A DNA stretch of 64,000 nt from a virus. The notes beneath the pieces are model-generated. The model made no database searches. It saw only the letters and a program-made list of their open reading frames with translations, and was not told where the DNA came from. Made by a program: the position numbers and the translations under genes. This document shows, in pieces, positions 3 through 17,797 of this stretch. Each line of letters starts with the position of its first letter. Within the stretch, counting starts at the first letter, position 1. The stretch spans positions 64,001 to 128,000 of IMG/VR virus record IMGVR_UViG_3300045974_000166; one strand, 5' to 3'.

Positions 3-671
3 GAATTCAAATACGTTTCTATAGATTCTTTGCTCTCTACACAACCAGTTAGAAATTATGTTTTGTCCGACGTAAATTCAACTACTGTTGTTGGAAATGA
101 TATGGATAAGAGATACTCATTTGTAGAACTTGTTGACATGCCGGTGACATTTGACTATATGAGAAATTCTTCTGCTGGTATGTATGGTGGTGTGCTTTAT
201 ACATATGACTTAACAACAAAGAAAATTAAGAAGACTCAGTATGATTATCTAGTAGAATTCACTAAGGCAAATCATACAAATAAACTTCCTCTAAAATCTA
301 AGAATCTATTCAACAATTTGAGATCAAACATTGACTTCTCTACTCAAAACGACTATTTGACTGGTGTATACAAATCTCAGAAACTTCATGATACCGTACT
401 TCAACGAAATTCTTTGTTAGAACAAATCCGTGCATTCAAGTTCAACATCCGAGTTTTTGGTCGTACTGACATTAATGCCGGGCAAACTATAACTTATACA
501 TCACCCAAGCAAAGAGAAATTGCCAAAGACGAAATTCAGGCTAACCCAGACTCTGAGTATTTTACTGGTAAGTATCTCATTACTGCTATTCGTCACCAAA
601 TTATTCGTGGTCAACACCACATGGAAATGGAAATTGTTTCCGATTCATTCGTTAAAGATATTTCAATATGA
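3..671 (+). CDS. Baseplate hub / tail protein (gp27-like), 5'-truncated by window edge
   Basis: Frame is open from nt 3 (EFKYVSIDSLLSTQ...). C-terminal 'GQTITY...SEYFTGKYLITAIRHQI...MEIVSDS' is typical of hub proteins lying just upstream of gp5 in T4-like phages. Confidence 0.6.
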   Translation, partial: EFKYVSIDSLLSTQPVRNYVLSDVNSTTVVGNDMDKRYSFVELVDMPVTFDYMRNSSAGMYGGVLYTYDLTTKKIKKTQYDYLVEFTKANHTNKLPLKSKNLFNNLRSNIDFSTQNDYLTGVYKSQKLHDTVLQRNSLLEQIRAFKFNIRVFGRTDINAGQTITYTSPKQREIAKDEIQANPDSEYFTGKYLITAIRHQIIRGQHHMEMEIVSDSFVKDISI

Positions 672-3217
672 CTGACTTTTTTGTAGGTATTGTAGAAGAT
701 AGAATTTCAGATCCACTTAAGTTGGGTAGAGTAAAAGTTCGTGTCTTTGGTGTACATTCTGAATCTATAATTGATGTACCAACTGCCGATTTACCTTGGG
801 CAATTCCGTTGATGACTGCTGGTTCTGCATCGCTTTCTGGTATTGGTGATGCGGTGCCACAATATTTAGAAGGAAGTACCGTATTCATATTCTTCCAGGA
901 TGGAGAATCAAAGCAGCAGCCTATCATCTTGGGATCACTTGCCGGTATTCCAATCAACAAGAATCCACTATCTAATACTTCAGAAGAAGTTTCTTCTAAT
1001 ATTGCAACACCTAAGTCAACTGTACTAGAATCAAGTTCTGGTACTCTTACTGACTCTTCTGGCCAAGCAGTAACAGACTCTTCAGGTACAGCCGTCAAAT
1101 CTGGCACTTCAGATTTGGTCCCACCTTTAGACATCACTGATATGGTTGCTAAATTTGGTGATAACGTTACTCTGGTATATCAAACTCTACTGAATTTTGG
1201 CATCAAAGATCCTTATGCTCTAATCGGCATTCTCTCTAATGTTGGCAAAGAATGTTCGTTTAAAGTTACTCGTGAAAGTCTAAATTATACTACAGTTGTA
1301 CGTCTTAAAGAAATATTTCCTTCTAAGTTTGGGTCAATGCCAGAATCAGTAGTTGCTACATATCTCGGTGATGAACAGAAAGTTGCTAATCTAGTGTATG
1401 CAAATAGATATGGTAATGGCACTACTGACTCTGGTGACGGTTATAATTTTCGCGGTGGTGGCTTTATCCAACTTACGTTCAAGAACAACTATCGCGATGT
1501 AGGTTCAAAAATAGGACTAGATCTTGTTTCTGATCCATCTCAAATTTCTGATGTAAAGGTAGCCGCAAAAACTTGTGCCCAATTCTTTATAAACTCATTT
1601 GGAGGCCGCGGCCGACTAAGTTTCTCAAGTTTAGATGAAGCACTTACTACAATTACGAAGAAGGTCAATGCTGGTGGATTTGCAAATGACTACCCAAAGG
1701 TAGTAACATATTCTAAACTTTGTAAAATCATCGATGATACAAATACAACAAGTAAGCAAGTAACAGAAGAAATTGCCAAGCCAAATAATCCAGAAAATGA
1801 CGTCAACAAGTCTGCCACTCAAGAACAGATAAACACTGGAATAGCATCTAAAAATAAACCTACTGGTGGTGGAACAGGTTTCAGAGACCCATCTGGCAAG
1901 TACCCTTTGTCTGCATTACTAAATGAACAAGATACTTCTCGCCTAGCTCGTAGAAATACTGCAGGTACCTCAATCGAAATTAGAAATAATAAGCGATTAA
2001 CTGGTCTCAAGAATACTTCTGGCACAACATTTGATGAACCAGCCCCAGCCTACAACTCACAATATCCGTACAACAAGGTTCATACAACTGAATCTGGACA
2101 CACCATAGAATTTGACGACACACCGGGCAATGAACGTATAAGTCAATTTCATGCAGCAGGCACATATACAGAGATTGACAAATATGGTAATACGGTTAAC
2201 AAAATTGTGGGTGATAACTATTCTATCACAGAACGCAACGGTTATATCTACATAGACGGTACAGCTAGAATCTCTGTTGGTTCTGATGTTAAGTTATATG
2301 TTGCTGGAAATATGGAAGTTGAAGTAGATGGAGATTTAAACTACAATGTGGGTGGGTCTGTAAATTGGAAAATTGGTGGCAATCTAATACAGGGTGTTGG
2401 CGGCCAAAATTCATTGAAATCTAGTGGGTCTACAGATATAGATTCTTCTATGGTTAACTTTAACTCTGGTACTTCTATATCTAACCCTCCATCTGCACGG
2501 TCTGGTGTTACCAATGATTACCCTAAACAAATACCAGAAAATTTCCTTGGTGGAGAAATTATCAAGTTTGATGATGCAGACCCAACTGTCGTTGATGCGC
2601 ATCATACGGAACAACTAAAGTCTGGTGCTATCACACAAGAAGAATTAGATAAAGGTACGGCCGCCAAAGCTATCGAAAAGAATGAAGAACCAGCTACAAT
2701 CAAAGAGGCACCAGTATTAAGTTCATGCACTATATTTGACAATAAGGATGACATTCCAGACACAACTCAAATATCTAAGTACTTTACTATAGGTATGCTT
2801 TCATCAAATGCCGTTGTGTCTCACTACAAGATAACAGCTCAACATAGTTTAACCAAAGCTCAAATAGCATGCAATCTCAAGAATTTAGCAGAGAACTGTC
2901 TTGATGTTATTAAAGCAAAATACTCAAACATGAGAGTTACTTCTGCATTCAGAATTGGAAGTACAACTTCTCAACATGAACTTGGTATGGCTGCTGACAT
3001 GCAATTTACTGGCATAACTAACGCAGATTACTATGACATAGCGGTTTGGATCAAATCTAATGTGATTTGTGATCAGCTTTTACTTGAGTATAAAACTACT
3101 GGAACTGGGCTTCCTTGGATTCATATTTCTTATAATATGGCCGGATGCAGATCACAAGTTATGACTTTTATGAATGATAAGAAATTTGCAGCTGGTCTCC
3201 AGAAACTTGAAGGATAA
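668..3217 (+). CDS. gp5: Baseplate central spike gp5 with internal GH19-type glycosidase and C-terminal M15-type peptidase
   Basis: N-terminal gp5 OB-fold (FFVGIVEDR..DPLKLGRVKVRVFGVH); GH19-like KECS..ESLNY..DGYNFRGGGFIQLTFKNNY; gp5 YPYNKVHTTESGHTIEFDDTPGNERI; C-terminal SQHELGMAADMQ...WIHISY. Confidence 0.9.
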   Translation: MTDFFVGIVEDRISDPLKLGRVKVRVFGVHSESIIDVPTADLPWAIPLMTAGSASLSGIGDAVPQYLEGSTVFIFFQDGESKQQPIILGSLAGIPINKNPLSNTSEEVSSNIATPKSTVLESSSGTLTDSSGQAVTDSSGTAVKSGTSDLVPPLDITDMVAKFGDNVTLVYQTLLNFGIKDPYALIGILSNVGKECSFKVTRESLNYTTVVRLKEIFPSKFGSMPESVVATYLGDEQKVANLVYANRYGNGTTDSGDGYNFRGGGFIQLTFKNNYRDVGSKIGLDLVSDPSQISDVKVAAKTCAQFFINSFGGRGRLSFSSLDEALTTITKKVNAGGFANDYPKVVTYSKLCKIIDDTNTTSKQVTEEIAKPNNPENDVNKSATQEQINTGIASKNKPTGGGTGFRDPSGKYPLSALLNEQDTSRLARRNTAGTSIEIRNNKRLTGLKNTSGTTFDEPAPAYNSQYPYNKVHTTESGHTIEFDDTPGNERISQFHAAGTYTEIDKYGNTVNKIVGDNYSITERNGYIYIDGTARISVGSDVKLYVAGNMEVEVDGDLNYNVGGSVNWKIGGNLIQGVGGQNSLKSSGSTDIDSSMVNFNSGTSISNPPSARSGVTNDYPKQIPENFLGGEIIKFDDADPTVVDAHHTEQLKSGAITQEELDKGTAAKAIEKNEEPATIKEAPVLSSCTIFDNKDDIPDTTQISKYFTIGMLSSNAVVSHYKITAQHSLTKAQIACNLKNLAENCLDVIKAKYSNMRVTSAFRIGSTTSQHELGMAADMQFTGITNADYYDIAVWIKSNVICDQLLLEYKTTGTGLPWIHISYNMAGCRSQVMTFMNDKKFAAGLQKLEG

Positions 3218-3648: not shown

Positions 3649-5487
3649 ATGGCCACAAATCCTCTCATTGATCTAGATTTTGATCAGATTAAAACAGCTA
3701 TTATAGATTATATCAAGAACTCAAATTCGACGTTCACTGACTATAATTTTGAAGGTTCTGCTTTAAATTCTATCATAGACATTCTTGCATATAACACACA
3801 TACAAATGCGTACTATGCAAACATGCTGCATTCAGAAAGTTTCTTGGACACAGCTCAGAAAAGATCTTCTGTAGTTTCTCGTGCTAAAGAACTTGGGTAT
3901 ACACCAAAGTCTATTACTGGTTCAAATGCTTATATAAACATTTATACTACTGGTTTATCTAGCCAAAGTACAGTATTTTACATCCCCCGTGGTTCTGTGT
4001 TTACATCTTCTAATGAATCTGGATCTTATCAATTTTTAGCTAAAAATGATTATTTTTCTAAATTGGATGGTGTAAATGGTACTGGTAACCGTCACATTTT
4101 TTCAGATGTAAATCTAATTTCTGGTGTTTATCTATCCAATTCCTTTACGGTTGATATACTTTCTAACGTTCGGTCAATCTTTACTATTCCTAATGAATCT
4201 ATAGACACAAATACACTTCGCGTGTTTGTAAAAGATTCTGCAAATTCGGTTGAACGGACAGAATATAAACTTGCATCAAATGTTTTTGATGCAGAACGTG
4301 GTTCTTTAATCTATTACCTACAAGAATCTTATACTGGGAATTTTGAAATATTCTTTGGTGACAACATTCTTGGCAAACAACCAGTCAATGGAAATGTGAT
4401 TGAGATTGATTATTTTGCATCCGAAATGCCAGACTCTCCTAACGGCTGCAGATTCTTTGCTTCTGATATTACATTTGATGGTGGAGTGGGAGTTGCTTCT
4501 ATTGAAACTACTCAAGTTGCATTTGGTGGTTCTTATAAGGATCCTCTAGAAACTATTAGGTTTAATGCATTGAACACAAATATTTCTAAGAATCGCGCGG
4601 TCACTGCTTCGGATTATTCTACGCTTTTAATCTCAAACTTCTCATTCATTAAGTCTGTAAATTCTTGGGGTGGCGAGGATAATCTACCGCCAGTTTTCGG
4701 CAAAATTTTCTTATCTCTACAACCTGTAACCGGATTTACTATTTCTGATTCTGTTAAGAATTCTCAAATTTTACCTGTGATTAAGAAGAATTCTTTAGTT
4801 ACTATTACTCCAGAATTTGTTGATCCTGCATATACATTCTTGGAATTTACTACTAAAGCAAAGTATGTTAAAAACCGAACTCTACTTACTAAGTCTTTGA
4901 TAGAAAGTTATATCAGAGCTACAATCTCTACTTATGTTTCTAATATTTCTTCGTTCAATTCTGAGTATCTTCATTCACAGTTGATCAAGGAATGTTTGGC
5001 GATTGATGCATCAATCTCTTCTGTAGACATTAAAGTCAATATTGCAAAAAACATAGTACCTTATATCGGCGTAAGTACTACTTCTATGTTTAGTTTTAAT
5101 AACGAATTGACCGACGGTTCTATTACATCTACAAATTACTACATGATCTCCAATGGAGAAACCGTTCTTGTTTCACTGAAACAGATTCCTGGGTCATATT
5201 CGGATGCTATCAATACTATCCCTTTCATTGGCGCGTATAATTCAGACAACCAACTTATTAGAAATGTTGGGACAATAAATCTAAAAACTGGTGAAGTAAA
5301 TATCACAATCAATGTGTCGGCCTTTGTGACTTCTACAGTCAAGTTTGTAAAGTTAAAAGCTACTACATATGACTTAAATATATCAACTAAAAACAATCAA
5401 ATTTTAGCTCTAGATGCAAATCTTAAGGATGGTCCTTCTGGTCTAATTGACAACAATTATATTCTCGTAGAAGAATACTTAAAGTAA
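3649..5487 (+). CDS. gp6: Baseplate wedge subunit gp6
   Basis: LDFDQIK..FTDYNFEGSAL..LAYNTH..ESFLDTAQKRSSVVSRAKELGYTP; RAVTASDY. Confidence 0.92.
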   Translation: MATNPLIDLDFDQIKTAIIDYIKNSNSTFTDYNFEGSALNSIIDILAYNTHTNAYYANMLHSESFLDTAQKRSSVVSRAKELGYTPKSITGSNAYINIYTTGLSSQSTVFYIPRGSVFTSSNESGSYQFLAKNDYFSKLDGVNGTGNRHIFSDVNLISGVYLSNSFTVDILSNVRSIFTIPNESIDTNTLRVFVKDSANSVERTEYKLASNVFDAERGSLIYYLQESYTGNFEIFFGDNILGKQPVNGNVIEIDYFASEMPDSPNGCRFFASDITFDGGVGVASIETTQVAFGGSYKDPLETIRFNALNTNISKNRAVTASDYSTLLISNFSFIKSVNSWGGEDNLPPVFGKIFLSLQPVTGFTISDSVKNSQILPVIKKNSLVTITPEFVDPAYTFLEFTTKAKYVKNRTLLTKSLIESYIRATISTYVSNISSFNSEYLHSQLIKECLAIDASISSVDIKVNIAKNIVPYIGVSTTSMFSFNNELTDGSITSTNYYMISNGETVLVSLKQIPGSYSDAINTIPFIGAYNSDNQLIRNVGTINLKTGEVNITINVSAFVTSTVKFVKLKATTYDLNISTKNNQILALDANLKDGPSGLIDNNYILVEEYLK

Positions 5488-5496
5488 TCCTGCTCC

Positions 5497-7524
5497 ATGA
5501 TCAATTACCAAAATAGTGTAGTAGATAATTATCCTCTGTACCAAGCATTCATTGACTTATACTATGCATATGTAAAGCAAAGAAATGCTCCAGTTGGCGA
5601 GATAAATAATCATGCCGCTAAACTAGATCTTGATCGCGCACTTTCTTCTGAGATTGATAAATTTTATTCCGTATATGCTATTGATCTACCAAAGACTATA
5701 GCATATGACAAAAGAAATCTTGCAAAAATTCTAAATCAGATATATGAAGCTAAGGGAACCGAGAATTCTCTTAAATTATTGTTTCGTCTTATCTATAATG
5801 AAGACATTCAGATTTCATACCCAGTACAAAATATTCTAAAACCTTCAGATGGTAGATGGATAAAAGAACAATACTTTACCGCATATAAGTATTCTGGCAC
5901 ACCACCCATAGAAAACACAAGAATTGTTTTCTCAAATGAAAAGGGTGACTTTTCACTAATCGTTACTGGTGTAGAAATTATCAATGCCGATGTTTGTCGA
6001 ATTAGATTCTCATCTTTGAACCGAGTTAATTTACCTCTAGAACAAATAGTAACGGCTACAGATGGTGAGCATGTATATTTTATCGGTAAAGTTATCCCAT
6101 CACCAGATAAACTTAGAATTTTAAAGCCTGGTAAGTATTGGAAGAAGGGTAAAGCAATTGTTATACCTGGTTCTATTAGAAACACAGTAGCCGTTGTATC
6201 ATCTGTTTCAACTGGTGGTGTAATTACCGGTATAGAAATTTTGGAATATGGTATCGGCCACAATGAAAATCAAATTTCTATAATTTCTCCATTTCCAAGA
6301 AAGCCAACCGGCTCACTACAAGATCTATCTTTTCAAATTACTGCTATCAATACAGCGGCAATTGGTGCCGGCTTCACAAACCATCCCGGTGTTGTGTATC
6401 ATCACACTGTAAACATAGAAGATTATGTAGATGGTCTAGCAGACGAAGTAATCGGTATATCAGCTGGGTTTACTCATAATTCTTATTTTCTGTCTGACTA
6501 TTTGGCCGCAGATTATTTGGGTACAGAAGAAATTCATACAAATACTACATCCGTTAAAAGTATAGATAACGTTGGTAGAGATACAGACATTAGAACCTGG
6601 CAAGAATCTCTTGCACTTCTAATGTACGAACACGGCCCACTTGTCGATGTAAAGGGTAAATATTCTGGTGATGAAGGTCAACTTTCCAATCAGCTGATTA
6701 AAATACAGGATTCATATTTCTATCAGGCATTCTCATATCTTTTAGAAAGTATACAAGATCCAAAATTATATAAGAAAATGGCGGACCTGTTTCACCCAGC
6801 AGGCACCAAAAGATTCTCGGGATACATTAAACAAATAGATGAAGCTTTACAATATGAGTTCCGTAGAGCATTCTTAGTTGATACAATTGTTCTTCGTGAT
6901 CAGCAGACTTTCTTAGATGCAGATTCTTTGATATTTGTTAAGAAAGTAATCGACTCATCTACACCTGTTGATTCGATACGATATAAGATTGTAGTTAAAC
7001 AATTGACAGACTCTGTGACTCCAAATCCAGATGTCAAGATGAAGAATCTTACTAAGAATTTGTCAGAAATTACTACTTATATTGATGTCTATCAAAAGAC
7101 TATTTTTAAATCTTTTACATTAGATTCAGTTGTTCCAGCCGAAACTGAGTTCAATAAGGACCAAACAAAGTACTTTACTACTGACTTTGTGACTAGTAGT
7201 CACACAAACCCAATATCACTGAGTAAACCCCGCGTAGATACTACAACAATCACAGATCCCCAATACTCAAAAATCTTTGGTAAAGGTTTTACCGAACTTG
7301 AAACTATTGTTGAAACTAAACCAAAACTTACAACTAATAGAACATTAAATGAATTAGAAACTATATTAGAAGCATTTTCCAAAAATGCTGCCAAAAATAT
7401 TGCATCTGACTTAGTCACTATAGTTTCTACCGATTCCAATGGAACTCTCGTCGATGGCCGATGGGATGTATCTTATTCTATTGGCGATTACTCAGAACCA
7501 TACAAATATCTATCTTTTAGTTAG
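5497..7524 (+). CDS. gp7: Baseplate wedge initiator gp7-like
   Basis: YEAKGTENSLKLLFRLIYNE..NILKPSDGRW and KIQDSYFYQAFSY..HPAG motifs; lies between gp6 and gp8. Confidence 0.75.
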   Translation: MINYQNSVVDNYPLYQAFIDLYYAYVKQRNAPVGEINNHAAKLDLDRALSSEIDKFYSVYAIDLPKTIAYDKRNLAKILNQIYEAKGTENSLKLLFRLIYNEDIQISYPVQNILKPSDGRWIKEQYFTAYKYSGTPPIENTRIVFSNEKGDFSLIVTGVEIINADVCRIRFSSLNRVNLPLEQIVTATDGEHVYFIGKVIPSPDKLRILKPGKYWKKGKAIVIPGSIRNTVAVVSSVSTGGVITGIEILEYGIGHNENQISIISPFPRKPTGSLQDLSFQITAINTAAIGAGFTNHPGVVYHHTVNIEDYVDGLADEVIGISAGFTHNSYFLSDYLAADYLGTEEIHTNTTSVKSIDNVGRDTDIRTWQESLALLMYEHGPLVDVKGKYSGDEGQLSNQLIKIQDSYFYQAFSYLLESIQDPKLYKKMADLFHPAGTKRFSGYIKQIDEALQYEFRRAFLVDTIVLRDQQTFLDADSLIFVKKVIDSSTPVDSIRYKIVVKQLTDSVTPNPDVKMKNLTKNLSEITTYIDVYQKTIFKSFTLDSVVPAETEFNKDQTKYFTTDFVTSSHTNPISLSKPRVDTTTITDPQYSKIFGKGFTELETIVETKPKLTTNRTLNELETILEAFSKNAAKNIASDLVTIVSTDSNGTLVDGRWDVSYSIGDYSEPYKYLSFS

Positions 7525-8049: not shown

Positions 8050-10140
8050 ATGTCTAATTCAATCAGAGCCGGCCTCCATTTTAGCGTCGCTGATACTATT
8101 CTCAAAGAGATTCAGTATCAGCGCTCTAACTATTTTTTCTTCCTTGGAAAGATTGACAAATGGAATGTAGATGATGTCTATGTTGACGCCAATCTGATTA
8201 ATTCTGATTATGAAAATAGTAATATTAGAACTAACATTCTATACATCAACAAGGTTTCTCCTACTGATGTGTCATTAGTTACGAAAAGAACACTTTGGAC
8301 TGCATCTACAGTTTATGATCAGTACGATCATACTAAAGATCTAAACACACTAACGTTCTTTGTAGTGACAGATGACTATAATGTTTACAAATGTCTTTCA
8401 AACAACAATAACGTTCCTTCTACTGTTAAACCGGTAGGAAAACCAACAATTCCTTTAAAACTTGCCGATGGATATATCTGGAAGTATATGTATGCAATTC
8501 CTTCTTTCAAGAAGTCGAAGTTCATGTCATATTCCTACATCCCTGTCCAAACTGCACTTTCTGATAGTTTTTATAACAACGGTTCCGTTGATGATGTAAT
8601 TGTCGAATATGGTGGTTCGGGTTATTCAGATACACCAAATGTGACAATCAGTTTAGCAGGTGCAGTTACCACAGGATCCGGAGCTACTGGCCACGTCACG
8701 GTTGATTCTTCTGGCCGTATTACTGGGATAGTAATAGACACAGGTGGTTCTGGATATACAGCGGGTGTTAGTCTTTCTGTTACTACTCTATCTGGAGCTG
8801 GTGCAGAACTTACACCTATCATTGCTGCTGGTGTTGTGACCGGAGCTAATATAGTTAGTGCTGGAATTTCTTATCAAAACGGAAATGTGATAAACTTTTC
8901 TCTTGGTGGTGCAATTTTAGTAGCAGGTGTGTCTCAAAGAATCTATGATGGTAGTTTAGCTTTTGTTTCTGGCGGCAGTATTACTAAGGTAACAATCGTT
9001 AATCCGGGTATTGGGTATGCTGTTGCACCAACACTCACGGTTGTTTCCGCTGATGCCTCAGGTACTGGAAAATATGGAGCTGGTTCTGCGTTACTTTCAT
9101 CTGTTGTATATCAAGGGAAAATTGTTCAGGTAAACATACTTGATTCTGGTATAAACTATGCTAATGGTATCGGCACCAATATTTCTGTATTTGGTGACGG
9201 TACTGGTGCTAAATTCACACCTGTTATCTATAACGGCTCTATTGTAGATGTGGTCGTAGATAATCCAGGCAAAGATTACTCAGAAGTTATAGTTTCAATC
9301 TCTGGTTCTACAGTAAATCCTGCTAAAATTACTCCCGTGTTGGCTTCATCTGACTTTTCTTCCGATCAATATATTATTGAACAGACTTCTGTTGCTGGTG
9401 CAATTTATGCAATTGTAATAACAAATCAGGGTACAAATTATACGGCCAATGCAGCTGTGAATGTTGTAGGTGATGGTACCGGAGCAATAGCTATACCAAC
9501 TGTGATAGATGGCAAAATTACTAAAATTACAATGACCAGCTATGGTCAAGACTATACTTATGCTAGTATTAGTATTACCGATGCTCTTCGTGCAGTTAAC
9601 ATAACCAATATAGATTTAGTATCATATGCTGTGATATCTCCAAAATATGGCCATGGTAGAGATGCGGTTCGCGAACTTAGTTCTTCTACAATTGCATTTA
9701 CGAATGTGATTAAGAAAGACCCATCTATTATTGATCTAGCTCAGGATTATAGATATTTTGGTCTTATAAAAAATCCAAAAAATATTCTTACTGGTGAGAT
9801 GATACGAGTTCAAAATAATGTTATAGCCCACTATGTTACCTTCACATCACATACTGGGTTGGTGATTGATGAAGTTCTTCTTAAGGCTGGTGCTAAATAC
9901 CGTGTTGTAAGTATTACAAATAATGATGTTGTTTTGCAACCGCTTGGTTCTGGATATATGACTTCAGCCGGTACCTACGTTGCAGAAACTAATTCTTCAA
10001 GAACTTATACAACTAGTGCAGTTTCTTATACTCCGGTCGTTGATAAATATTCTGGTGACTTACTCTTTGCCTCAGCAGAAAATCAATTTACATTTACAGC
10101 TGACCAGACATTCGTTATCAAAACTTTCCTAACAGTTTAA
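8050..10140 (+). CDS. gp8: Baseplate wedge subunit gp8 with inserted Gly-rich beta repeats
   Basis: YNVYKCLSNNN..STVKP..DGYIWKYMY and GHGRDAVREL..DYRYFGLIKNP motifs; central GGSGY/PGIGY/SGINY repeats. Confidence 0.85.
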   Translation: MSNSIRAGLHFSVADTILKEIQYQRSNYFFFLGKIDKWNVDDVYVDANLINSDYENSNIRTNILYINKVSPTDVSLVTKRTLWTASTVYDQYDHTKDLNTLTFFVVTDDYNVYKCLSNNNNVPSTVKPVGKPTIPLKLADGYIWKYMYAIPSFKKSKFMSYSYIPVQTALSDSFYNNGSVDDVIVEYGGSGYSDTPNVTISLAGAVTTGSGATGHVTVDSSGRITGIVIDTGGSGYTAGVSLSVTTLSGAGAELTPIIAAGVVTGANIVSAGISYQNGNVINFSLGGAILVAGVSQRIYDGSLAFVSGGSITKVTIVNPGIGYAVAPTLTVVSADASGTGKYGAGSALLSSVVYQGKIVQVNILDSGINYANGIGTNISVFGDGTGAKFTPVIYNGSIVDVVVDNPGKDYSEVIVSISGSTVNPAKITPVLASSDFSSDQYIIEQTSVAGAIYAIVITNQGTNYTANAAVNVVGDGTGAIAIPTVIDGKITKITMTSYGQDYTYASISITDALRAVNITNIDLVSYAVISPKYGHGRDAVRELSSSTIAFTNVIKKDPSIIDLAQDYRYFGLIKNPKNILTGEMIRVQNNVIAHYVTFTSHTGLVIDEVLLKAGAKYRVVSITNNDVVLQPLGSGYMTSAGTYVAETNSSRTYTTSAVSYTPVVDKYSGDLLFASAENQFTFTADQTFVIKTFLTV

Positions 10141-10155
10141 ACACGGTTACCAATT

Positions 10156-13100
10156 ATGCCTACAAATTTATCCGCAGCACCTTACTACGATGACTACAAT
10201 CCAGCATCTGACTACCATCAGATTCTGTTTAAACCTGGTGTGTCTGTTCAGGCTCGTGAACTTACTCAAATGCAAAGCATTACAAGAAATCAGATTGCAG
10301 CATTTGGTGGTCACGTTTTTAAACATGGTTCAGTTGTCGTACCAGGTAATGTCACAACAGATTTTGAAGTCTCATATGTAAAGTTAACTATTGTAAACTT
10401 TGACGTTACTAGATTAGTAGGTAGTAAGCTTACTGGCCAAACTTCTGGTCTTACTGCATATGTTAAATTTGCTGTGAATGCGGTAGCGACCGATCCTGCA
10501 ACTATTTTTGTGACATACTATAATGTTGGTACCAATGGTGAACGTGTATTCACAGAAGGTGAAACTATCACAGACAATGTTAACAATTTTGTTGTATGGA
10601 CAAAACTTGTGTCAGACACTACGGAGTCTAGAGGACAATCTGTTCTTGCTTCTGTTAATAAAGGAACATTCTTCGTTAATGGTACTTTTGCTAATGTATC
10701 ACCACAGACGGTAGTATACTCAAAATATTCTGGTATTCCATCTGGTTCTGCATTGTTGAAGATTACTGAATCCATTGTTGATTCGAATACTGACCCAACA
10801 TTACTAGATCCAGCACAAGGTTCTTATAACTATGCTGCACCCGGCGCAGATCGTCTTAAAATTACCCTTACATTAGTAACACTTCCACTTGGTGCTACTT
10901 TTGGCGAAGATTATATTGAACTTATGCGGTATGACAATGGAGAACTTTTAGAACTTCTTCGGTATTCTAAGTACTCAGAACTAGAAAAGAATCTTGCACG
11001 TAGAACATATGAGCAATCTGGTGACTATATTACATCTGGCCTAGATATATCGGTGCGTGAACACCTTAAGAAAACTGTTAATGGTGGCAAATATGATGCA
11101 CCTACAGGTGATGCATCAAAATTCATTGTAGATGTTTCTGCTGGTAAAGCATATGTTAACGGATATGAGTGCGAAGTATTTTCTAAACGTGAAGTCGTGG
11201 TTGATAAGGCACGTTCTGCCGATCATATCAAAACATCTACCGCTAATTTAGTACCATCATTTGGCCAATATGTCCTGATTACGGATTTAGCTGGACTTCC
11301 AGTTTTCTCTACTCAAGAAACTATTACGTTCTATGATAATACTACTGCTGGTACCGTGATCGGTACGGCTTCTGCTCTAGCCGTAGATTATAATCAGACT
11401 GCCGGTGCAAATGAAACTTCTTCTATCTATACACTATTCATTTCAAATGTAGTATTGCAACCAGCTAAGTCTTTAGTTGATGTTGCTCGATGCACCTATA
11501 CTGCTGGTTCTTCAAAGGTTGTGCAAAAGATTAATATTGCTTCATCATCAGCAGTTGATTTTGTATTGGGTGAACTTGTCTCTGCTGGTGCTACTGGCCG
11601 ATCTGCAACCGTTCGTAAATACAACCGATACACTGGTGAACTGTTTGTGATCAAGAATGGTGCAAATACTGTACCAATTATCAATGATTTTCTTACTGCA
11701 GTATCTACTTCTTCTGGTAAAATTTTGTCTATTGATGCTATATTTAAGAATTCAACTGACAATCTTATCATTCAACTTCCAAAGAAATCTGTTAATGCAG
11801 TTAAGAATAGTGCAAATGCAGTTGATACTACATATAAACTTTACTATAATACCACCGTAACATGTGTCGCTGGCAATGCATCATTCTCTGTGACTGGTAT
11901 GACTATTGATCCAAAAGAACAAGGCAACTTCATGGTCGTTGGTGCTACACAGGTTTATCCGATCTCTGTTGCAACAGTAACAACCGACGGTTTAACCGTT
12001 AACATTACTGGTATTACTCCTACAACAGCAGTTCTGCAAATTACATGTGCCGCTACGAAAACTCTTACTGGTTCTACTCCAAAGACAAAATCTAAGAGCA
12101 CTTCTACCGCCGAAGTATTTACTCTAACTTCTGGGTTTGGCCAACTAAAATATGCCGATGGTATTAGATTAATTTCTGTTATTTCATCCGTTGACGGTAA
12201 TGTCACTTCTCGGTTTATGTTCGACAACGGCCAGCGCGACTATGTATATGGTCGTTCAGCCGTAGTATTAATTTCTGGAACTGCTCCTACAGGAACTCTA
12301 ACAGCAACATATGATTACTTTGCTCATAATGCTGGTTCTGGTGATCACTTCACTGTTGACTCATATGTCTCATCTGGCCTCGTAGATTATTTTGAATCAT
12401 CACTTTTATACTACACTAGCAAATCTGGTGGAACTAAATATGATCTAAGAAACTGCTTAGACTTTCGTCCACGTGAAGGTGTGGCCGGAGGTATTACTGG
12501 TGTGTCTTCTCTTACAAATTATCTACCACAGGTTGACTCTAGAATTACTACATCTGTACAAAGTTATGTAGGTCGCTATGATGTTGTTGTAATTGATAAA
12601 GCTTCAAAAATTAGTACTCTTACTGGTGTACCTTCGGAAACACCTTATGTGCCAAAGATCAATTCTGAGATCATTTCTCTTGGAACTATCTACGTACCAC
12701 CATATACTTACTCTGTCAACGATATGAGATTGTCAAAGTCTAATAATTCTACTTATAGAATGAAAGACATCTTTGGTATCGAAAACCGAATTGCTAATCT
12801 TGAAGATTATGTGACGATTAATGCAACAGAAGCATCAATCATCAATTATGATGTTATCGATGCACAAACTGGTTTATCTAGATATAAGTCTGGTTATTTA
12901 GTTGACACTTTTGACAATCCAGACATCATTTCAGATATTTTGGGTAGTCAGTTTACTATCACTTATTTTTCTGGCAATATTATTCCACAATTTGAAGTAT
13001 ACGAAACTCCGCTTGTGACTTCTTCTGCTGGTACTTTGTCTATTACAAATAATGTAGTGATGCTACCCTTTACAGAGATTGTCTTTGCCAAACAACCAAT

Positions 13101-14037
13101 GTCATCTAAGATTACTAACATCAATCCGTTTTCTGTATTTTCGTGGCACGGTATTATGAGTATCCAACCAAAATCTGATTCGTGGGAAGAAATTCAAAAT
13201 TTACCTACGGTGTTGAATACTCACAACCAAGTGTTAAACAATACGGTTGTTAACATTACTACAGAAACTATAAATGTTAGTCGGCCATGGGATTGGGTGC
13301 CACCTTCTGGTGCTTTAGTTTCTTATGCTGCTGCACCAACACCTGTTGTTGCTCCACCGGCTTCTGGCGGGGGTGGGGGTGGATGTTTTACTGGTGAAAC
13401 ATTAGTTACTATGGCAAATGGTAAAAAGAAAGCAATCTCGGAAATCGTTGTGGGTGATCTTGTTAAGGGCACAACTAAGGATGCATTCAATGAAGTTCTA
13501 TATGTGGAATCTCTTGAGAACAACATGTGGAATCTTTACTCTCCAAACGAGACATTCATTCCATTTGCTACTATCAACCATCCATTCTACATCAATGGCG
13601 TTCTAACTCTACCAAAAGAATTGATGGGCAAGATTAACTATTCTTGGCTTGGCAATATCCAGTATGAAGCATTTGGCAATGTACAAGAACTTAATAAGTC
13701 TAGATGCCGTGTATACAATCTTTGGTTAGATGGTGACGGCACTTACCTTGTAAATGGACTTCCAACAACTTCGATTTTGTTAGACACAAAATTCCTAAGA
13801 AACATAATTAAATATGAGCATGTAACTCATGATCAATGTATGGAAATTATTAATGCCGTTCAATCGGATATTAATTTGCTAAATGGATCTTATGCAGTTT
13901 CTAGAATTTTAGGAAAACTAAATTTAAGATTCATAGATCGTACAGTTGCATGCACATTCAATGACGGAAAAATATCTAAGAAAATATTGTTTGGTTTCTT
14001 AAAAATCGTCGGTTCTCTAGTTATAAAGAAAAAATAA
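10156..14037 (+). CDS. Large virion structural protein (DUF4815/VrlC-like, N-terminal part) ending in a Hint domain
   Basis: PYYDDY..ILFKPG..VQARELTQMQS..APGADRLKI..LARRTYEQSGDY..RYKSGYLVDTF; Hint-like GGGGGG-CFTGETLVTMA...YNLWLDGDGTYLVNG from C1077 (nt 13384). Confidence 0.8.
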   Translation: MPTNLSAAPYYDDYNPASDYHQILFKPGVSVQARELTQMQSITRNQIAAFGGHVFKHGSVVVPGNVTTDFEVSYVKLTIVNFDVTRLVGSKLTGQTSGLTAYVKFAVNAVATDPATIFVTYYNVGTNGERVFTEGETITDNVNNFVVWTKLVSDTTESRGQSVLASVNKGTFFVNGTFANVSPQTVVYSKYSGIPSGSALLKITESIVDSNTDPTLLDPAQGSYNYAAPGADRLKITLTLVTLPLGATFGEDYIELMRYDNGELLELLRYSKYSELEKNLARRTYEQSGDYITSGLDISVREHLKKTVNGGKYDAPTGDASKFIVDVSAGKAYVNGYECEVFSKREVVVDKARSADHIKTSTANLVPSFGQYVLITDLAGLPVFSTQETITFYDNTTAGTVIGTASALAVDYNQTAGANETSSIYTLFISNVVLQPAKSLVDVARCTYTAGSSKVVQKINIASSSAVDFVLGELVSAGATGRSATVRKYNRYTGELFVIKNGANTVPIINDFLTAVSTSSGKILSIDAIFKNSTDNLIIQLPKKSVNAVKNSANAVDTTYKLYYNTTVTCVAGNASFSVTGMTIDPKEQGNFMVVGATQVYPISVATVTTDGLTVNITGITPTTAVLQITCAATKTLTGSTPKTKSKSTSTAEVFTLTSGFGQLKYADGIRLISVISSVDGNVTSRFMFDNGQRDYVYGRSAVVLISGTAPTGTLTATYDYFAHNAGSGDHFTVDSYVSSGLVDYFESSLLYYTSKSGGTKYDLRNCLDFRPREGVAGGITGVSSLTNYLPQVDSRITTSVQSYVGRYDVVVIDKASKISTLTGVPSETPYVPKINSEIISLGTIYVPPYTYSVNDMRLSKSNNSTYRMKDIFGIENRIANLEDYVTINATEASIINYDVIDAQTGLSRYKSGYLVDTFDNPDIISDILGSQFTITYFSGNIIPQFEVYETPLVTSSAGTLSITNNVVMLPFTEIVFAKQPMSSKITNINPFSVFSWHGIMSIQPKSDSWEEIQNLPTVLNTHNQVLNNTVVNITTETINVSRPWDWVPPSGALVSYAAAPTPVVAPPASGGGGGGCFTGETLVTMANGKKKAISEIVVGDLVKGTTKDAFNEVLYVESLENNMWNLYSPNETFIPFATINHPFYINGVLTLPKELMGKINYSWLGNIQYEAFGNVQELNKSRCRVYNLWLDGDGTYLVNGLPTTSILLDTKFLRNIIKYEHVTHDQCMEIINAVQSDINLLNGSYAVSRILGKLNLRFIDRTVACTFNDGKISKKILFGFLKIVGSLVIKKK

Positions 14038-16308
14038 ATGGCTACATCATTACTAAGCACTTATGGCACTACTCAATCTATTAGTAGAACTGATCTAGTT
14101 GGTCTAACATCTGTTTCTTTCATCAGACCACAAAGAATTAGTTTCTCTGTTTCTGGTACAAAACCAAATACAAGACTTTATGCATTTTTTGATGGTCAGG
14201 TAGTCTCACAATATGTAGCACAGACAGGCAAAAACAAGGGTGACCCAATCATTGCTGATAGCGCTGGCAGTGTCACTGGTTACTTTGATGTCCCACCTGT
14301 CACTTTTAACACTGGTGTTCGGACATTTTTGCTTCAAGATGATCCAGTATATTCTACTACGGTTATACCTGGAAATTCTGTGGGTACTGCCCAGGCTAAT
14401 TTTTCGGCCGCTGGTATTCTTAAGACATTCCAACAAACAACAGATGTTACAAATACTACGTTTAATACATTTAAACAAGATATTACTAAAACTGTAACAA
14501 ACAACATCATTGCAGCCAAACCTGTTCCTCCGCCAGCTCCCGCACCAGTTGTATCTACATGGTCCGGCGGAAATGACGGTGGAGGAGGTGGGGGAGATCC
14601 TCTCGCCCAGACATTTTTTACATATGGTGTAAAGGGTGGTTGTTTTATTACTGCTATTTCTGTGTTCTTTCAAAGTAAAGATGCATCTTTACCTATTACG
14701 TTACAGATTAGAAATACTAACAATGGTTATCCAACGGATTCTTTAATTTCGGAGTATGCTTCTAAAACATTGTCACCAGTTTCAATATTCACTTCTAACG
14801 ATTCAAGCCTAGAGACTAAGTTCGCATTTGATAGACCAATTTATCTTCAGGAAAATCAAGAATTCTGTTTTGTTTTGATGGCAAATTCTAACGGCTACAA
14901 TGTTTGGACTTCAGAATTTAGTAAAGTGTCAGTAGAAACAGGCAAGACAATTTTTGAACAGCCTTATGTTGGTACAATGTTCAAATCAGAAAATAATTCT
15001 ACTTGGACTGCTGAACAAGCTGAAGATATTAAGTTTACAATCTATCGTGCATCTTTTAATACTGCACCACGTGAATACACATTTAAAGCTAATGCACCTA
15101 CTATACTAGTGCCTGGTTATAATTTCTCTACTACATCTGGTGTCAGCCCAATAATCACTGCATCTTTTGACACACAGCACGGTCATAAAACTGGTGACAA
15201 AATTGTTCTTGCAACTCTTACGGGTGCAACATATAGAGGTATGACTGCTGCTACACTTGGTGTAAATACTGGTTTTTCTGTGACAGTTATAGATGATTAT
15301 TCTCTCACTTTTACAGCAACTGGTTGTACATCAACATCTGCCGGTCTTTTGTCGGCATCAGGAATTCTAAATCAGATTTCTGTAATTGCCCCCGGTACAG
15401 GTTATACAGCTTCTCCTTCAATTGTAGTTTCTGGTGGTGGAGCTTCTGTACAAGCTACTGCTCATGCAGTTGTAGTTTCTGGTAAGGTAGCTTCTGTTAT
15501 CATTGATACGGTTGGTACAGGATATACTTCTAAACCATCTGTTGCTATTACGGATGGTTCTGGGTCTGGTTGTATACTTGATGCAGTGTCAGAAGCAATT
15601 TTTGTAGTTTCTCTGAACAAACAATATCAAAATTTGCTGCCTGTTGTCGATACATTTATTCCACAATCTACAACAGTTGATTGCACTATAAAAACTATGA
15701 CGTCAGATTACATTCAGGGCATACATGAATTGTCGTCTCTTACCGTTCCTCGTCAATTGGTTAAGAATGCAGTTTTACTTAATTCTGGAACTGAAACTGT
15801 TGTTTCGTCTGGTGTGAATTCTACCGAAATTAAAATGACATTTTCTACGGATAATGCTAATGTTTCTCCAATGTTAGATTTAGCTAATAAACCTAGACTT
15901 CGGGTACATAATTTTATTGTAAATAACTCTTCAAATGCAGCATCAGAAACCTCTGCCACAACAGGTACAGCCCAGTCTAAATACATCTCTAAAATTGTAA
16001 AGATCGACACACCTTCTAAAGGTGCCAAGATATTTGTATCTGGTGCTTCAATTAAACAGACATCGTTTGATGTCTTTATTCGTACTTCGATAGGTAGTGA
16101 TAACCATACTCTGCTTGCTTGGACTCCAATGAACTGTGACATTCTTCGTAATGTTTCAAGTACATGGGATGAATACAGAGACTATGAATTTTACATCGAA
16201 AATCTTGCTATATTTGATACGTACGATATTAAGATAGTTTTGTACTCAGATGTTAAATACTTATTCCCAAAGATAGATAATTACCGTGTGATTATCCTAG
16301 CATCATAA
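14038..16308 (+). CDS. Large virion structural protein (DUF4815/VrlC-like, C-terminal part)
   Basis: FIRPQRISF..KPNTRLYAFFDG, GGDPLAQTF, WTAEQAEDIKFTIYRASF, SPMLDL and EYRDYEF motifs, which normally form the C-terminal half of the same protein as the upstream ORF. Confidence 0.8.
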   Translation: MATSLLSTYGTTQSISRTDLVGLTSVSFIRPQRISFSVSGTKPNTRLYAFFDGQVVSQYVAQTGKNKGDPIIADSAGSVTGYFDVPPVTFNTGVRTFLLQDDPVYSTTVIPGNSVGTAQANFSAAGILKTFQQTTDVTNTTFNTFKQDITKTVTNNIIAAKPVPPPAPAPVVSTWSGGNDGGGGGGDPLAQTFFTYGVKGGCFITAISVFFQSKDASLPITLQIRNTNNGYPTDSLISEYASKTLSPVSIFTSNDSSLETKFAFDRPIYLQENQEFCFVLMANSNGYNVWTSEFSKVSVETGKTIFEQPYVGTMFKSENNSTWTAEQAEDIKFTIYRASFNTAPREYTFKANAPTILVPGYNFSTTSGVSPIITASFDTQHGHKTGDKIVLATLTGATYRGMTAATLGVNTGFSVTVIDDYSLTFTATGCTSTSAGLLSASGILNQISVIAPGTGYTASPSIVVSGGGASVQATAHAVVVSGKVASVIIDTVGTGYTSKPSVAITDGSGSGCILDAVSEAIFVVSLNKQYQNLLPVVDTFIPQSTTVDCTIKTMTSDYIQGIHELSSLTVPRQLVKNAVLLNSGTETVVSSGVNSTEIKMTFSTDNANVSPMLDLANKPRLRVHNFIVNNSSNAASETSATTGTAQSKYISKIVKIDTPSKGAKIFVSGASIKQTSFDVFIRTSIGSDNHTLLAWTPMNCDILRNVSSTWDEYRDYEFYIENLAIFDTYDIKIVLYSDVKYLFPKIDNYRVIILAS

Positions 16309-16318
16309 AGATAGAACC

Positions 16319-17797
16319 ATGGCCGCAAACATAATTTATAGAGCTTCAGTAACTCCGGTCGTAGCCTCTGCTACTATTGCAAAAAATTCTGCCCTTTCTA
16401 ATGCAGAAATGGATGGAAACTTAAAAGCAATTGCTAACGAATTGGAAATAAAAGCAAATCTAAATGCACCCACATTTACGGGCACAGTTGTTCTACCAGC
16501 AACTACTTCAATTGGCACCGTATCTTCTGTAGAGTTAGGGTTTTTGGATGGAGTAACTTCTAGTATTCAGACGCAATTGTCATCTAAAGCTTCAATAGCA
16601 AGTCCTACTTTTTCTGGTATTCCAACTGCACCTACTGCCGCACCTGGTACTAGTACCACACAAGTTGCAACAACGGAATTTGTTGCAACTTCTTTTACGG
16701 CAAAAGCACCAGTCGCTTCTCCTGCATTTACAGGTACTGCTACTGCACCTCAATTTATTTCTACTGCTGCCATTGGTACTCCTCCGTTTGCGGTAACTTC
16801 TACTACTGTCGTCACAAATCTAAATGCGGATTTCCTTGACGGTCAATCAGGAGATACTGCTGCAACACCAAGCACAATCGTAATCAGAGATGTTTCTGGT
16901 GGAGCTGCTCTTACAAATCTGAATACTACACTAGCTGATGTTAATACAATTTCCGGAGCTCTTGTATTTAGAAATGCAGGTTCTCTGGGTTACTGTTCAT
17001 CTACAACTGCTATTAAGACTTATCTTGGTGTTCCAACTGGTTCTGGTACTTCTACTGGTAGTAATACTGGTGATCAAACTTCTGTTACAGGTAATGCCGG
17101 CACAGTAACTAACGGTGTCTATACGATTGGAGACCAAACGATAGGTGGTAATAAGACATTCTCTCTTCCAATCGTTGGAACACTATCTGGTACTGCTACT
17201 TACGTTTCTACTACACAACAGACAAATATGATTACTGGTTCTAACACTCCAGTAAACATTGCTCTAGCTAATTCAACTAATAACGGTTCATTCGTCTGCC
17301 GAGCAGCTGGTGCATCTGACGGTAATTCTAATTTAGCAGGTCTAACATTTTGGCATGATTCTTATGCAATCAAGATGGGTGTTCGTGCCGATGGTATGTT
17401 TGGTATTGGTGGTTGGTCTAGAGGCGCATGGTCGTGGTATTCTGATTCTGCTGGCAACTGTGTGGCCTCAGGTAATGTGTCTGGTTATTCAGACCCGAGG
17501 CTTAAAGACAATGTACAACTTATAGCTGATCCATTTGCTCTTATAGATGCTATCAACGGAGTAACATTCACCTGGAATGAACATTCTAAACTCATACAAC
17601 CTAAATGGGGAAAACATGATTATGGTGTCCTATCATCAGAAGTAAAATCTGTGATGCCAGAAATCATTACTCAGTCAATTTCTGATGAAGAAACAGGTGA
17701 GATTTATGATACAGTCGACTACACCAAATTGGTACCAGTTCTTCTAGAAGCAATAAAACTATTGAAAAGAGAAGTTGATCTCTTAAAAGCAAAATGA
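16319..17797 (+). CDS. Tail fibre 1 with C-terminal S74 intramolecular chaperone
   Basis: SPTFTG/APTA repeats; C-terminal YSDPRLKDNV..INGVTFTW..VDYTKLVPVLLEAIK. Confidence 0.85.
   Translation: MAANIIYRASVTPVVASATIAKNSALSNAEMDGNLKAIANELEIKANLNAPTFTGTVVLPATTSIGTVSSVELGFLDGVTSSIQTQLSSKASIASPTFSGIPTAPTAAPGTSTTQVATTEFVATSFTAKAPVASPAFTGTATAPQFISTAAIGTPPFAVTSTTVVTNLNADFLDGQSGDTAATPSTIVIRDVSGGAALTNLNTTLADVNTISGALVFRNAGSLGYCSSTTAIKTYLGVPTGSGTSTGSNTGDQTSVTGNAGTVTNGVYTIGDQTIGGNKTFSLPIVGTLSGTATYVSTTQQTNMITGSNTPVNIALANSTNNGSFVCRAAGASDGNSNLAGLTFWHDSYAIKMGVRADGMFGIGGWSRGAWSWYSDSAGNCVASGNVSGYSDPRLKDNVQLIADPFALIDAINGVTFTWNEHSKLIQPKWGKHDYGVLSSEVKSVMPEIITQSISDEETGEIYDTVDYTKLVPVLLEAIKLLKREVDLLKAK

Follow-up and report, generated by a model that had tools for sequence, protein, structure and literature searches.

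A family of phage Hint domains with a conserved helical tail, predicted to be self-removing, at the break point of a split VrlC baseplate protein

Hint domains are familiar from inteins, from Hedgehog processing and from the BIL and Vint domains of bacteria or protists. We analyzed a Hint domain in a 64,000-nucleotide stretch of viral DNA (positions 64,001 to 128,000 of the IMG/VR record IMGVR_UViG_3300045974_000166), hereafter the window. Two adjacent open reading frames (ORFs) on its plus strand, ORF1 and ORF2, encode the N- and C-parts of one VrlC/DUF4815 baseplate protein, and ORF1 ends in a Hint domain followed by a helical tail. Judging from the predicted structure and the conserved motifs, we consider it likely that this C-terminus is a Hedgehog-like bipartite autoprocessing module which would remove itself from the baseplate protein. 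Hint and tail form a unit that is found throughout a large protein family and that recurs where the genes of virion proteins are broken.

The C-terminal region of ORF1 reads PPASGGGGGG/CFTGETLVTMA...VYNLWLDGDGTYLVNGLPTTS, where the slash marks the predicted scissile bond, and is followed by 87 further residues. AlphaFold, supplied with a 54-sequence alignment, modeled Hint and tail together with a predicted local distance difference test score (pLDDT) of 90.2 and a predicted template modeling score (pTM) of 0.85, as a beta domain (model residues 16-145) followed by five helices (151-231). Foldseek returned 25 PDB matches at E<=1e-3, every one of them a Hint; BIL2 was the best (E 4e-8), followed by the gp41-1 intein, Vint, the Clostridium thermocellum BIL, DnaB inteins and Hedgehog. 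Structural alignment with VIA to 27 Hint chains gave Z scores of 8.5-14.3, among them 14.3 for BIL2 (126 residues aligned), 13.4 for the C. thermocellum BIL, 13.1 for the gp41-1 intein and 11.6 both for Hedgehog (1at0) and for Vint, the alignment to the latter (146 residues) extending into the first tail helices. BIL2, from the Tetrahymena BUBL locus, was also the best sequence match among solved structures (E 1e-3). The catalytic motifs are conserved across the family: Cys1 (Cys1077 of ORF1) and the TxxH of block B are present in 93 of 93 modules, with the His invariant and the Thr nearly so, and in a 74-protein alignment both Cys1 and the Phe next to it are invariant, as are, in the family, the block-B His, one Trp and one Asp. 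A Gly-rich linker precedes Cys1 in 46 of the 93 members, and the residue at -1 is Gly in 31. The Hint of the family ends in TTS, THS or TSS, never in HN, and no +1 extein comes after it. With a beta-fold of pseudo-two-fold symmetry, motif A (C1077) and motif B (T1139/H1142), the C-terminal domain of ORF1 is by modeled fold and by motifs a member of the Hint superfamily.

Cis or trans splicing by this domain is excluded, as far as model and sequence can decide, because the Hint is complete, ends in Thr-Thr-Ser and not His-Asn, and ORF2 has no C-intein. An intein of class 1-3 does not fit an ending in TTS that is followed by an 87-residue tail and a stop, and a PT-HINT does not fit a tail that is conserved rather than polymorphic and carries no C-terminal cleavage residue. 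A naturally split intein was also considered, in which the N-intein of ORF1 and a C-intein of ORF2 would be spliced in trans or, as a variant, a fused precursor would arise by read-through of the in-frame TAA. In its favor, the break coincides exactly with the Hint, and ORF2 lies in frame behind a single TAA after an A-run (AAAGAAAAAATAAATG; window 14020-14045, L100:5330-5356; handles beginning with L denote IMG/VR loci), the TAAATG junction being identical in L100, an 80%-identical relative. However, the Hint is complete including its last strands (the 126 residues aligned to BIL2), the tail and a stop stand between it and ORF2, and no C-intein motif (HN or nucleophile) was found at the N-terminus of ORF2, which starts MATSLLS, or in any downstream piece of the relatives. 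We give trans-splicing virtually no credence and rejected it. At the other module loci the stop-to-start gaps run from -8 to +34 nt in mixed frames, and because relatives show these other spacings the in-frame junction of the window suggests coincidence and not read-through; a fusion of ORF1 and ORF2 by read-through or frameshift was rejected for the same reason. Going by the residues present, only an N-S acyl shift at Gly1076-Cys1077 appears to have what it needs in place. A first-pass annotation of this DNA had proposed a Hint domain at the end of ORF1, with the N-terminal Cys and without the terminal His-Asn, that would not splice and could cleave only at its N-terminal side. The predicted fold, the conservation of Cys1 and TxxH, the missing terminal Asn and the missing C-intein all agree with this proposal. 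The match to Hint itself greatly exceeds what chance would give, judging by the phmmer family described below, the Foldseek E value of 4e-8 and the VIA Z score of 14.3.

The tail is best understood together with the Hint. Its pLDDT is about 90 when attached to the Hint and 62 (pTM 0.37) when it is folded alone, and because a confident fold is obtained only in the company of the Hint we read the tail as an integral extension that packs on it in the model. It can be aligned throughout the family, though it is less conserved than the Hint (GDGGxLR..E.G..T...YGxYxxN..G..N.K...K.VG..A), and invariance, full or nearly so, is confined to Gly38, Gly80 and Ile1. The first-pass description of a basic/hydrophobic tail of about 90 residues holds as to its basic character (net charge +7 in the window; family median +5), but a loose appendage it is not, as it is conserved, folded, helical and amphipathic and belongs to the module. 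No similarity to any known domain was found in Pfam, NCBIfam, PHROG, PDB profile, VIA and Atlas searches. The matches that did appear were taken as noise, namely, the AadA helical domain (E 0.007, tail profile against PDB), the IpaH/SspH NEL domains (VIA Z<=4.6) and PIN-like Atlas clusters (<=0.90); the model of the tail alone, at pLDDT 62, is too low in confidence for a fold search. A transmembrane anchor was rejected, since the maximal 19-residue Kyte-Doolittle mean has a median of 1.14 and exceeds 1.6 in 1 of 40 tails. A homing endonuclease, toxin or enzyme was rejected on the basis of too few invariant residues and no Pfam, NCBIfam or PHROG match.

A phmmer search of 1.84 billion representative proteins with the 217 residues from Cys1077 to the end of ORF1 identified 262 clusters (50% identity) at E<=1e-3, 133 of them below 1e-10. 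Nearly all matches span the query from residue 1 to about 213 and end a few residues from the C-terminus of the subject, whether the subject has 209 or 4119 residues or any length between, and the module lies at the extreme C-terminus in 65 of 65 module ORFs detected by regular expression in IMG/VR loci. By these alignments Hint and tail are one conserved 217-residue unit. The parts to which it is attached include DUF4815/phrog_358 proteins, gp5-like baseplate hubs, Gly_rich_2, PHROGs labeled "virion structural" and many of unknown nature. The homologs in the large protein collection are all unnamed or "hypothetical," and the module is not described in the literature found on Hint domains together with cyanophages, baseplates, tail fibers or VrlC. 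By language model its nearest neighbor is a phage cluster without known function; Vint clusters from giant viruses come next. A search of 185,579 prokaryote genomes for DNA encoding the pattern VYNLWxDGD, the one motif on which the near-absence from prokaryotes rests, found two true copies, both on contigs below 4 kb in metagenome bins. From these distributions the family appears to be phage restricted so far. No second copy was found in the same 192-kb genome, and no GC anomaly marks the module of the window, which led us to reject a recent foreign insertion.

Several variants within the family were recorded. In one subfamily (L013, L030, L070, L074, L055, P0026, P0031, P0054 and P0060) the host part is short, about 150 residues, and has a hydrophobic, membrane-helix-like end immediately before Cys1, e.g., IPILLIIAGIGE/CFT. 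Several relatives (L018, L020, L024, L029-L032, L040, L066 and L072) have a Cys-Gly or Cys-Asn repeat (GCGCGCF, CNCNCNCNCGGGCF) in place of the Gly run before Cys1, and such repeats could be a metal-binding site or alternative nucleophiles. Tandem arrays of two to six complete Hints occur in P0004 (residues ~1540-2175), P0098 (~2040-2780) and L056:5600-6750. These Hints, of about 150-165 residues, start with Cys-Phe and end in His-Asn-Lys, resembling type A BILs, and follow one another head to tail, with the terminal Hint-tail module immediately after them.

That ORF1 and ORF2 are two parts of one protein was confirmed by profile and pairwise alignment. ORF1 matches DUF4815 (PF16075) with an E value of 4e-54 and 184 bits (cut-off 30); of the 2056 positions of phrog_358 it covers 5-1132 and ORF2 covers 1315-1590. 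The homolog in Pelagibacter phage Mosig, annotated VrlC, is a single protein of 2045 residues, of which ORF1 matches residues 4-1289 and ORF2 residues 1382-2044, so that the break lies within a linker of low conservation. Homologs of VrlC are components of the baseplate (PMC4621102, PMC7029224). Among the 80 IMG/VR VrlC loci closest to the N-terminus of the window protein, about 35 of 37 complete genes are single chains of 1650-2830 residues, two are split without any Hint, and no Hint carrier was found. One chain is the norm and the split VrlC is the minority form. The first-pass account of a DUF4815-like protein, usually one chain of ~2000 residues and here divided between 10156-14037 and 14038-16308, is borne out by these data, the two ORFs sharing a frame and being parted only by a TAA.

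The module is repeatedly found at such breaks. About 60 module-bearing IMG/VR loci were mapped on Mosig VrlC numbering, and 34 of the host parts proved to be VrlC N-parts and 21 of the downstream ORFs VrlC C-parts. Three sites are used: site A at ~1290-1380 (window, L041, L068, L046 and L003), site B at ~1417-1427 (L009-L012, L014, L021 and L022) and site C at ~1445-1530, just before DPLAQTF (L018, L052, L066, L056 and L029-L032). VrlC is in three pieces in L024, L040, L062 and L072, with the module on a middle piece of ~220 residues between an N-piece without it and a C-piece, and also in L004, L006, L053 and L061, where the N-piece carries the module and a middle piece of 123-167 residues does not. 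A second, unrelated protein family shows the same arrangement: in L036:6729-9952, phrog_24848 (799 positions) is split at 388/389, the host part with the module covering 3-389 and the next ORF 388-795, with an ATGA overlap. A quick maximum-likelihood search gave a module tree in which host families and break sites are intermixed, although the labels are still more clustered than expected by chance; some mixed pairs are well supported (L014, from VrlC site B, with L007, from another host; L009 with L055). Because of this intermixing, the tree suggests that the module has been exchanged between virion proteins by recombination. The only Gly6 run of ORF2 lies behind a Pro-rich stretch directly before DPLAQTF, i.e., at site C, where Gly runs occur in 3 of 40 unsplit VrlC proteins; it may have been left behind by a module since lost, or may be a flexible linker that was there before. 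The survey of homologs for presence or absence of the Hint, suggested with the first-pass annotation, found the module in 89 IMG/VR loci and also found breaks without it. That the tail belongs to the module, that the family is large and phage-only so far and that it recurs at several points of gene fission go beyond that annotation.

We propose that Cys1077, aided by Thr1139 and His1142 of block B, would attack the carbonyl of Gly1076 in an N-S acyl shift and that the resulting thioester would be resolved, most probably by water. The products would be a baseplate piece of 1076 residues with Gly at its end and a separate Hint-tail of 24 kDa. As there is neither a C-terminal Asn nor a downstream extein, no splicing is predicted to follow, and the C-piece would be made from its own, translationally coupled gene and join the N-piece noncovalently. 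A module that could not free its own C-terminus would be restricted to the end of a polypeptide, and if it entered a multidomain protein the downstream domains would therefore have to be restarted as a separate gene. The module tends to occupy the interdomain linkers where genes are broken, and a protein put together noncovalently from its parts might tolerate breakage at its flexible linkers.

Several observations weigh against a self-removing module. The sequence of the window reaches 22-25 bits on Pfam Hint, Hom_end_hint and Vint, for which the cut-offs are 27-32. In the search against Pfam Hint families that the first-pass annotation had called for (PF01079, PF05203, PF14623, PF13403 and PF07591, with curated gathering cut-offs), it fell below every gathering score (24.7, 22.1, 19.6 and 13.2 bits versus 29.7, 32.1, 27 and 28.4), whereas other members of the family match far better (best E values of 4e-22 for PF05203, 1e-15 for PF14623 and 1e-13 for PF01079; PF14623 is matched by 23 of 74 members and PF07591 by 7 of 74). 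The clade of the window departs from the tail consensus, with LDTK for GDGG and NGSY for YGAY. No cultured phage with the module was found among 50,697 GenBank phage records searched with the module of the window and with a consensus-like one. Breaks without the module are present at site A in L024, L040, L062 and L072 and at site C in L004, L053, L061 and also L147, so fission does not depend on the module. The N-piece of the split VrlC of L147 (L147:10001-16458), which lacks a Hint, ends in an extension of ~190 residues that does not align to Mosig VrlC. L147 and L056 were rejected as a pair of empty and filled sites, being too distant (27-31% identical).

An inactive relic, a Hint-tail that no longer cleaves and stays in the virion as a structural C-terminal domain, would account for the scores below the Pfam thresholds, for the divergence of the window clade from the family consensus and for a Hint that evolves faster than its host protein (55% versus 85% identity to L100). 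Yet the window, L100, L003 and 93 diverse modules all retain Cys1, Phe2, the Thr and the His, and the ratio of nonsynonymous to synonymous substitution rates (dN/dS) versus L100 is well below 1 for the N-part (0.08), the Hint (0.21) and the tail (0.09), although these values are rough because dS is saturated. We regard a relic as quite improbable. Hint and tail are both under purifying selection, and the strong constraint on the tail suggests that it does more than fill space; it may serve as a scaffold for the Hint or as an aid in assembly or docking.

It is also conceivable that the thioester has a more specific fate. In a ligation like that of Hog or BUBL, the Gly1076 thioester would be passed to a specific nucleophile which the tail would help to present. 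Candidates are the hydroxyl of a lipid or a sugar (cholesterol plays this part in Hedgehog), the product of ORF2, and a Lys or alpha-amine on a different baseplate protein; an adduct or cross-link would remain on the N-piece. The architecture of a Hint with a C-terminal extension of ~90 residues, G/CF and no Asn parallels that of Hog, a Hint with SRR/ARR, and in Hedgehog the thioester is passed to a nucleophile other than water (PMC2362128). BIL2, the best structural match, attaches its N-terminal domain to lysines (PMC8616854). Constraint is stronger on the tail than on the Hint, with which the tail cofolds, and the module is found repeatedly at points where two pieces of one protein have to come together. 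The downstream pieces, however, start with MATS, MPY, MSY or MKPIGQTF and have no conserved Cys, Ser or Thr; breaks without the module argue against an obligatory role in ligation; many hosts have no obvious partner gene; and the invariant residues of the tail are Gly and Ile, none of them polar, and it resembles no known domain found. The first-pass annotation had also raised the ligation of a Gly6 thioester to a nucleophile, and the data give this no preference over hydrolysis. We consider such a ligation rather unlikely. It is likewise unlikely, in our judgment, that the Hint-tail is a viral counterpart of Hog, with a tail that recognizes an adduct or a partner and a thioester that goes to the next VrlC piece, another subunit or a lipid. 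If it were, phage virion parts would be covalently joined or tethered with no splicing intein involved, and the repeated gene breaks would be the mark left by this mechanism.

The plus strand of the window carries a T4-like baseplate and tail module (Table 1). The order of gp5-, gp6-, gp7- and gp8-like genes followed by VrlC is common to the window and Mosig, in which VrlC also follows the gp8-like gene; 3' of ORF1 and ORF2 come tail fibers and the sheath. The source genome is the 192-kb IMG/VR record, judged complete, and its sheath protein is 45-50% identical to the sheaths of cyanomyophages and pelagimyophages. The adjoining tail fiber gene (16319-17797) ends in a Peptidase_S74 self-cleaving intramolecular chaperone (E 1e-7), so that two unrelated kinds of self-removing C-terminal module, that of ORF1 being a predicted one, would stand in adjacent genes.

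Table 1. Positions of the baseplate genes, the Hint-tail module and related features in the window
Feature	Position	Strand	Basis
gp5-like hub with lysozyme	668-3217	+	
gp6-like wedge	3649-5487	+	
gp7-like protein	5497-7524	+	
gp8-like wedge	8050-10140	+	
ORF1, VrlC/DUF4815 baseplate N-piece with C-terminal Hint-tail module, 1293 aa	10156..14037	+	DUF4815, phrog_358, Mosig VrlC
Predicted mature N-piece, residues 1-1076, ending in Gly1076	10156..13383	+	placed from the position of Cys1
Gly6 linker G1071-G1076 after a Pro/Ala-rich stretch; Gly1076 is -1 of the predicted scissile bond	13366..13383	+	
Hint domain C1077-S1206, structurally complete	13384..13773	+	AlphaFold, Foldseek, VIA
Cys1077, predicted nucleophile, motif A G/CF	13384..13386	+	
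Block B PFATINHP, with Thr1139 and His1142	13561..13584	+	
Block F/G-like strands VYNLWLDGDGTYLVNGLPTTS, without terminal His-Asn	13711..13773	+	
Tail, 87 aa, five helices, basic, amphipathic, packed on the Hint, conserved	13774..14034	+	AlphaFold, family alignment
TAA of ORF1 and, directly after it, ATG of ORF2; in frame, behind an A-run	14035..14040	+	
ORF2, VrlC C-piece, 756 aa, N-terminus MATSLLS, without C-intein motif	14038..16308	+	phrog_358, Mosig VrlC
Only Gly6 run of ORF2, behind a Pro-rich stretch, directly before DPLAQTF (site C)	14578..14595	+	

The modules described here make up a new and large Hint family (at least 262 clusters at 50% identity), so far from phages only, which caps virion proteins. 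In it a Hint is joined to a conserved helical extension, and it may offer a clue to the origin of the Hint-plus-extension architecture of Hog and Vint. If the module removes itself as predicted, it provides a testable case of covalent self-processing in baseplate assembly and a natural experiment in how a nonsplicing Hint coexists with an essential protein, by way of a gene break at a linker; the modules would also be candidates for compact self-cleaving, thioester-generating tags. VrlC serves as a single-copy phylogenetic marker for pelagimyophages and cyanomyophages (PMC7029224), and split, Hint-bearing forms would be mishandled in that use.

Among known systems, the Hint-tail is predicted from its structure and motifs to work most like a C-terminal autoprocessing domain of the Hog or Vint type; it does not belong to the inteins, the split inteins or the type A BILs. 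With the Hog domains of Hedgehog, Warthog and Groundhog it shares a C-terminal bipartite unit, Gly/Cys-Phe, the TxxH of block B, the lack of a C-terminal Asn, a non-Hint extension of ~70-90 residues after the Hint and, as predicted here, the breaking of the N-terminal bond only. The position and size of the tail in the AlphaFold model fit the SRR/ARR of Hog, with no similarity between the tail and SRR detected or within reach of the tools used. Unlike Hog, the Hint-tail scores below the cut-off of PF01079, is encoded by phages and sits on structural proteins of the virion.

The best structural and sequence matches of the module are to BILs (BUBL BIL2, 6y75/6tmm; C. thermocellum, 2lwy), which, comparably to the Hint-tail, are nonintein Hints that carry out cleavage or ligation but not canonical splicing. 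In type B BILs block G is missing (PMC4031507), and on this one point the module would fit that type, which is also defined by family-specific motifs (Amitai et al. 2003). BIL2 and the type A BILs have a His-Asn end and lie between two domains, whereas the module ends in TTS, carries a helical tail and is terminal in position. Vint (PF14623; 8r2c) is likewise a C-terminal variant of the Hint, recognizable chiefly by motifs A and B. However, the window scores about 16-19.6 bits against its cut-off of 27, nothing in Vint corresponds to the last three tail helices, and Vint, unlike the Hint-tail, follows VWA-Vwaint in eukaryotes and giant viruses.

Two phage systems invite comparison as well. The Peptidase_S74 chaperone of tail fibers and spikes is, like the Hint-tail as predicted, a C-terminal module that removes itself after its job, but its fold and chemistry, a serine-lysine dyad dependent on a trimer, are unrelated. 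In the split inteins and "fractured genes" of phages, a structural or replicative gene is broken at a Hint element, much as VrlC is in the window; unlike them, the arrangement described here lacks both a C-intein and a homing endonuclease gene in between, and no ligation is predicted for it.

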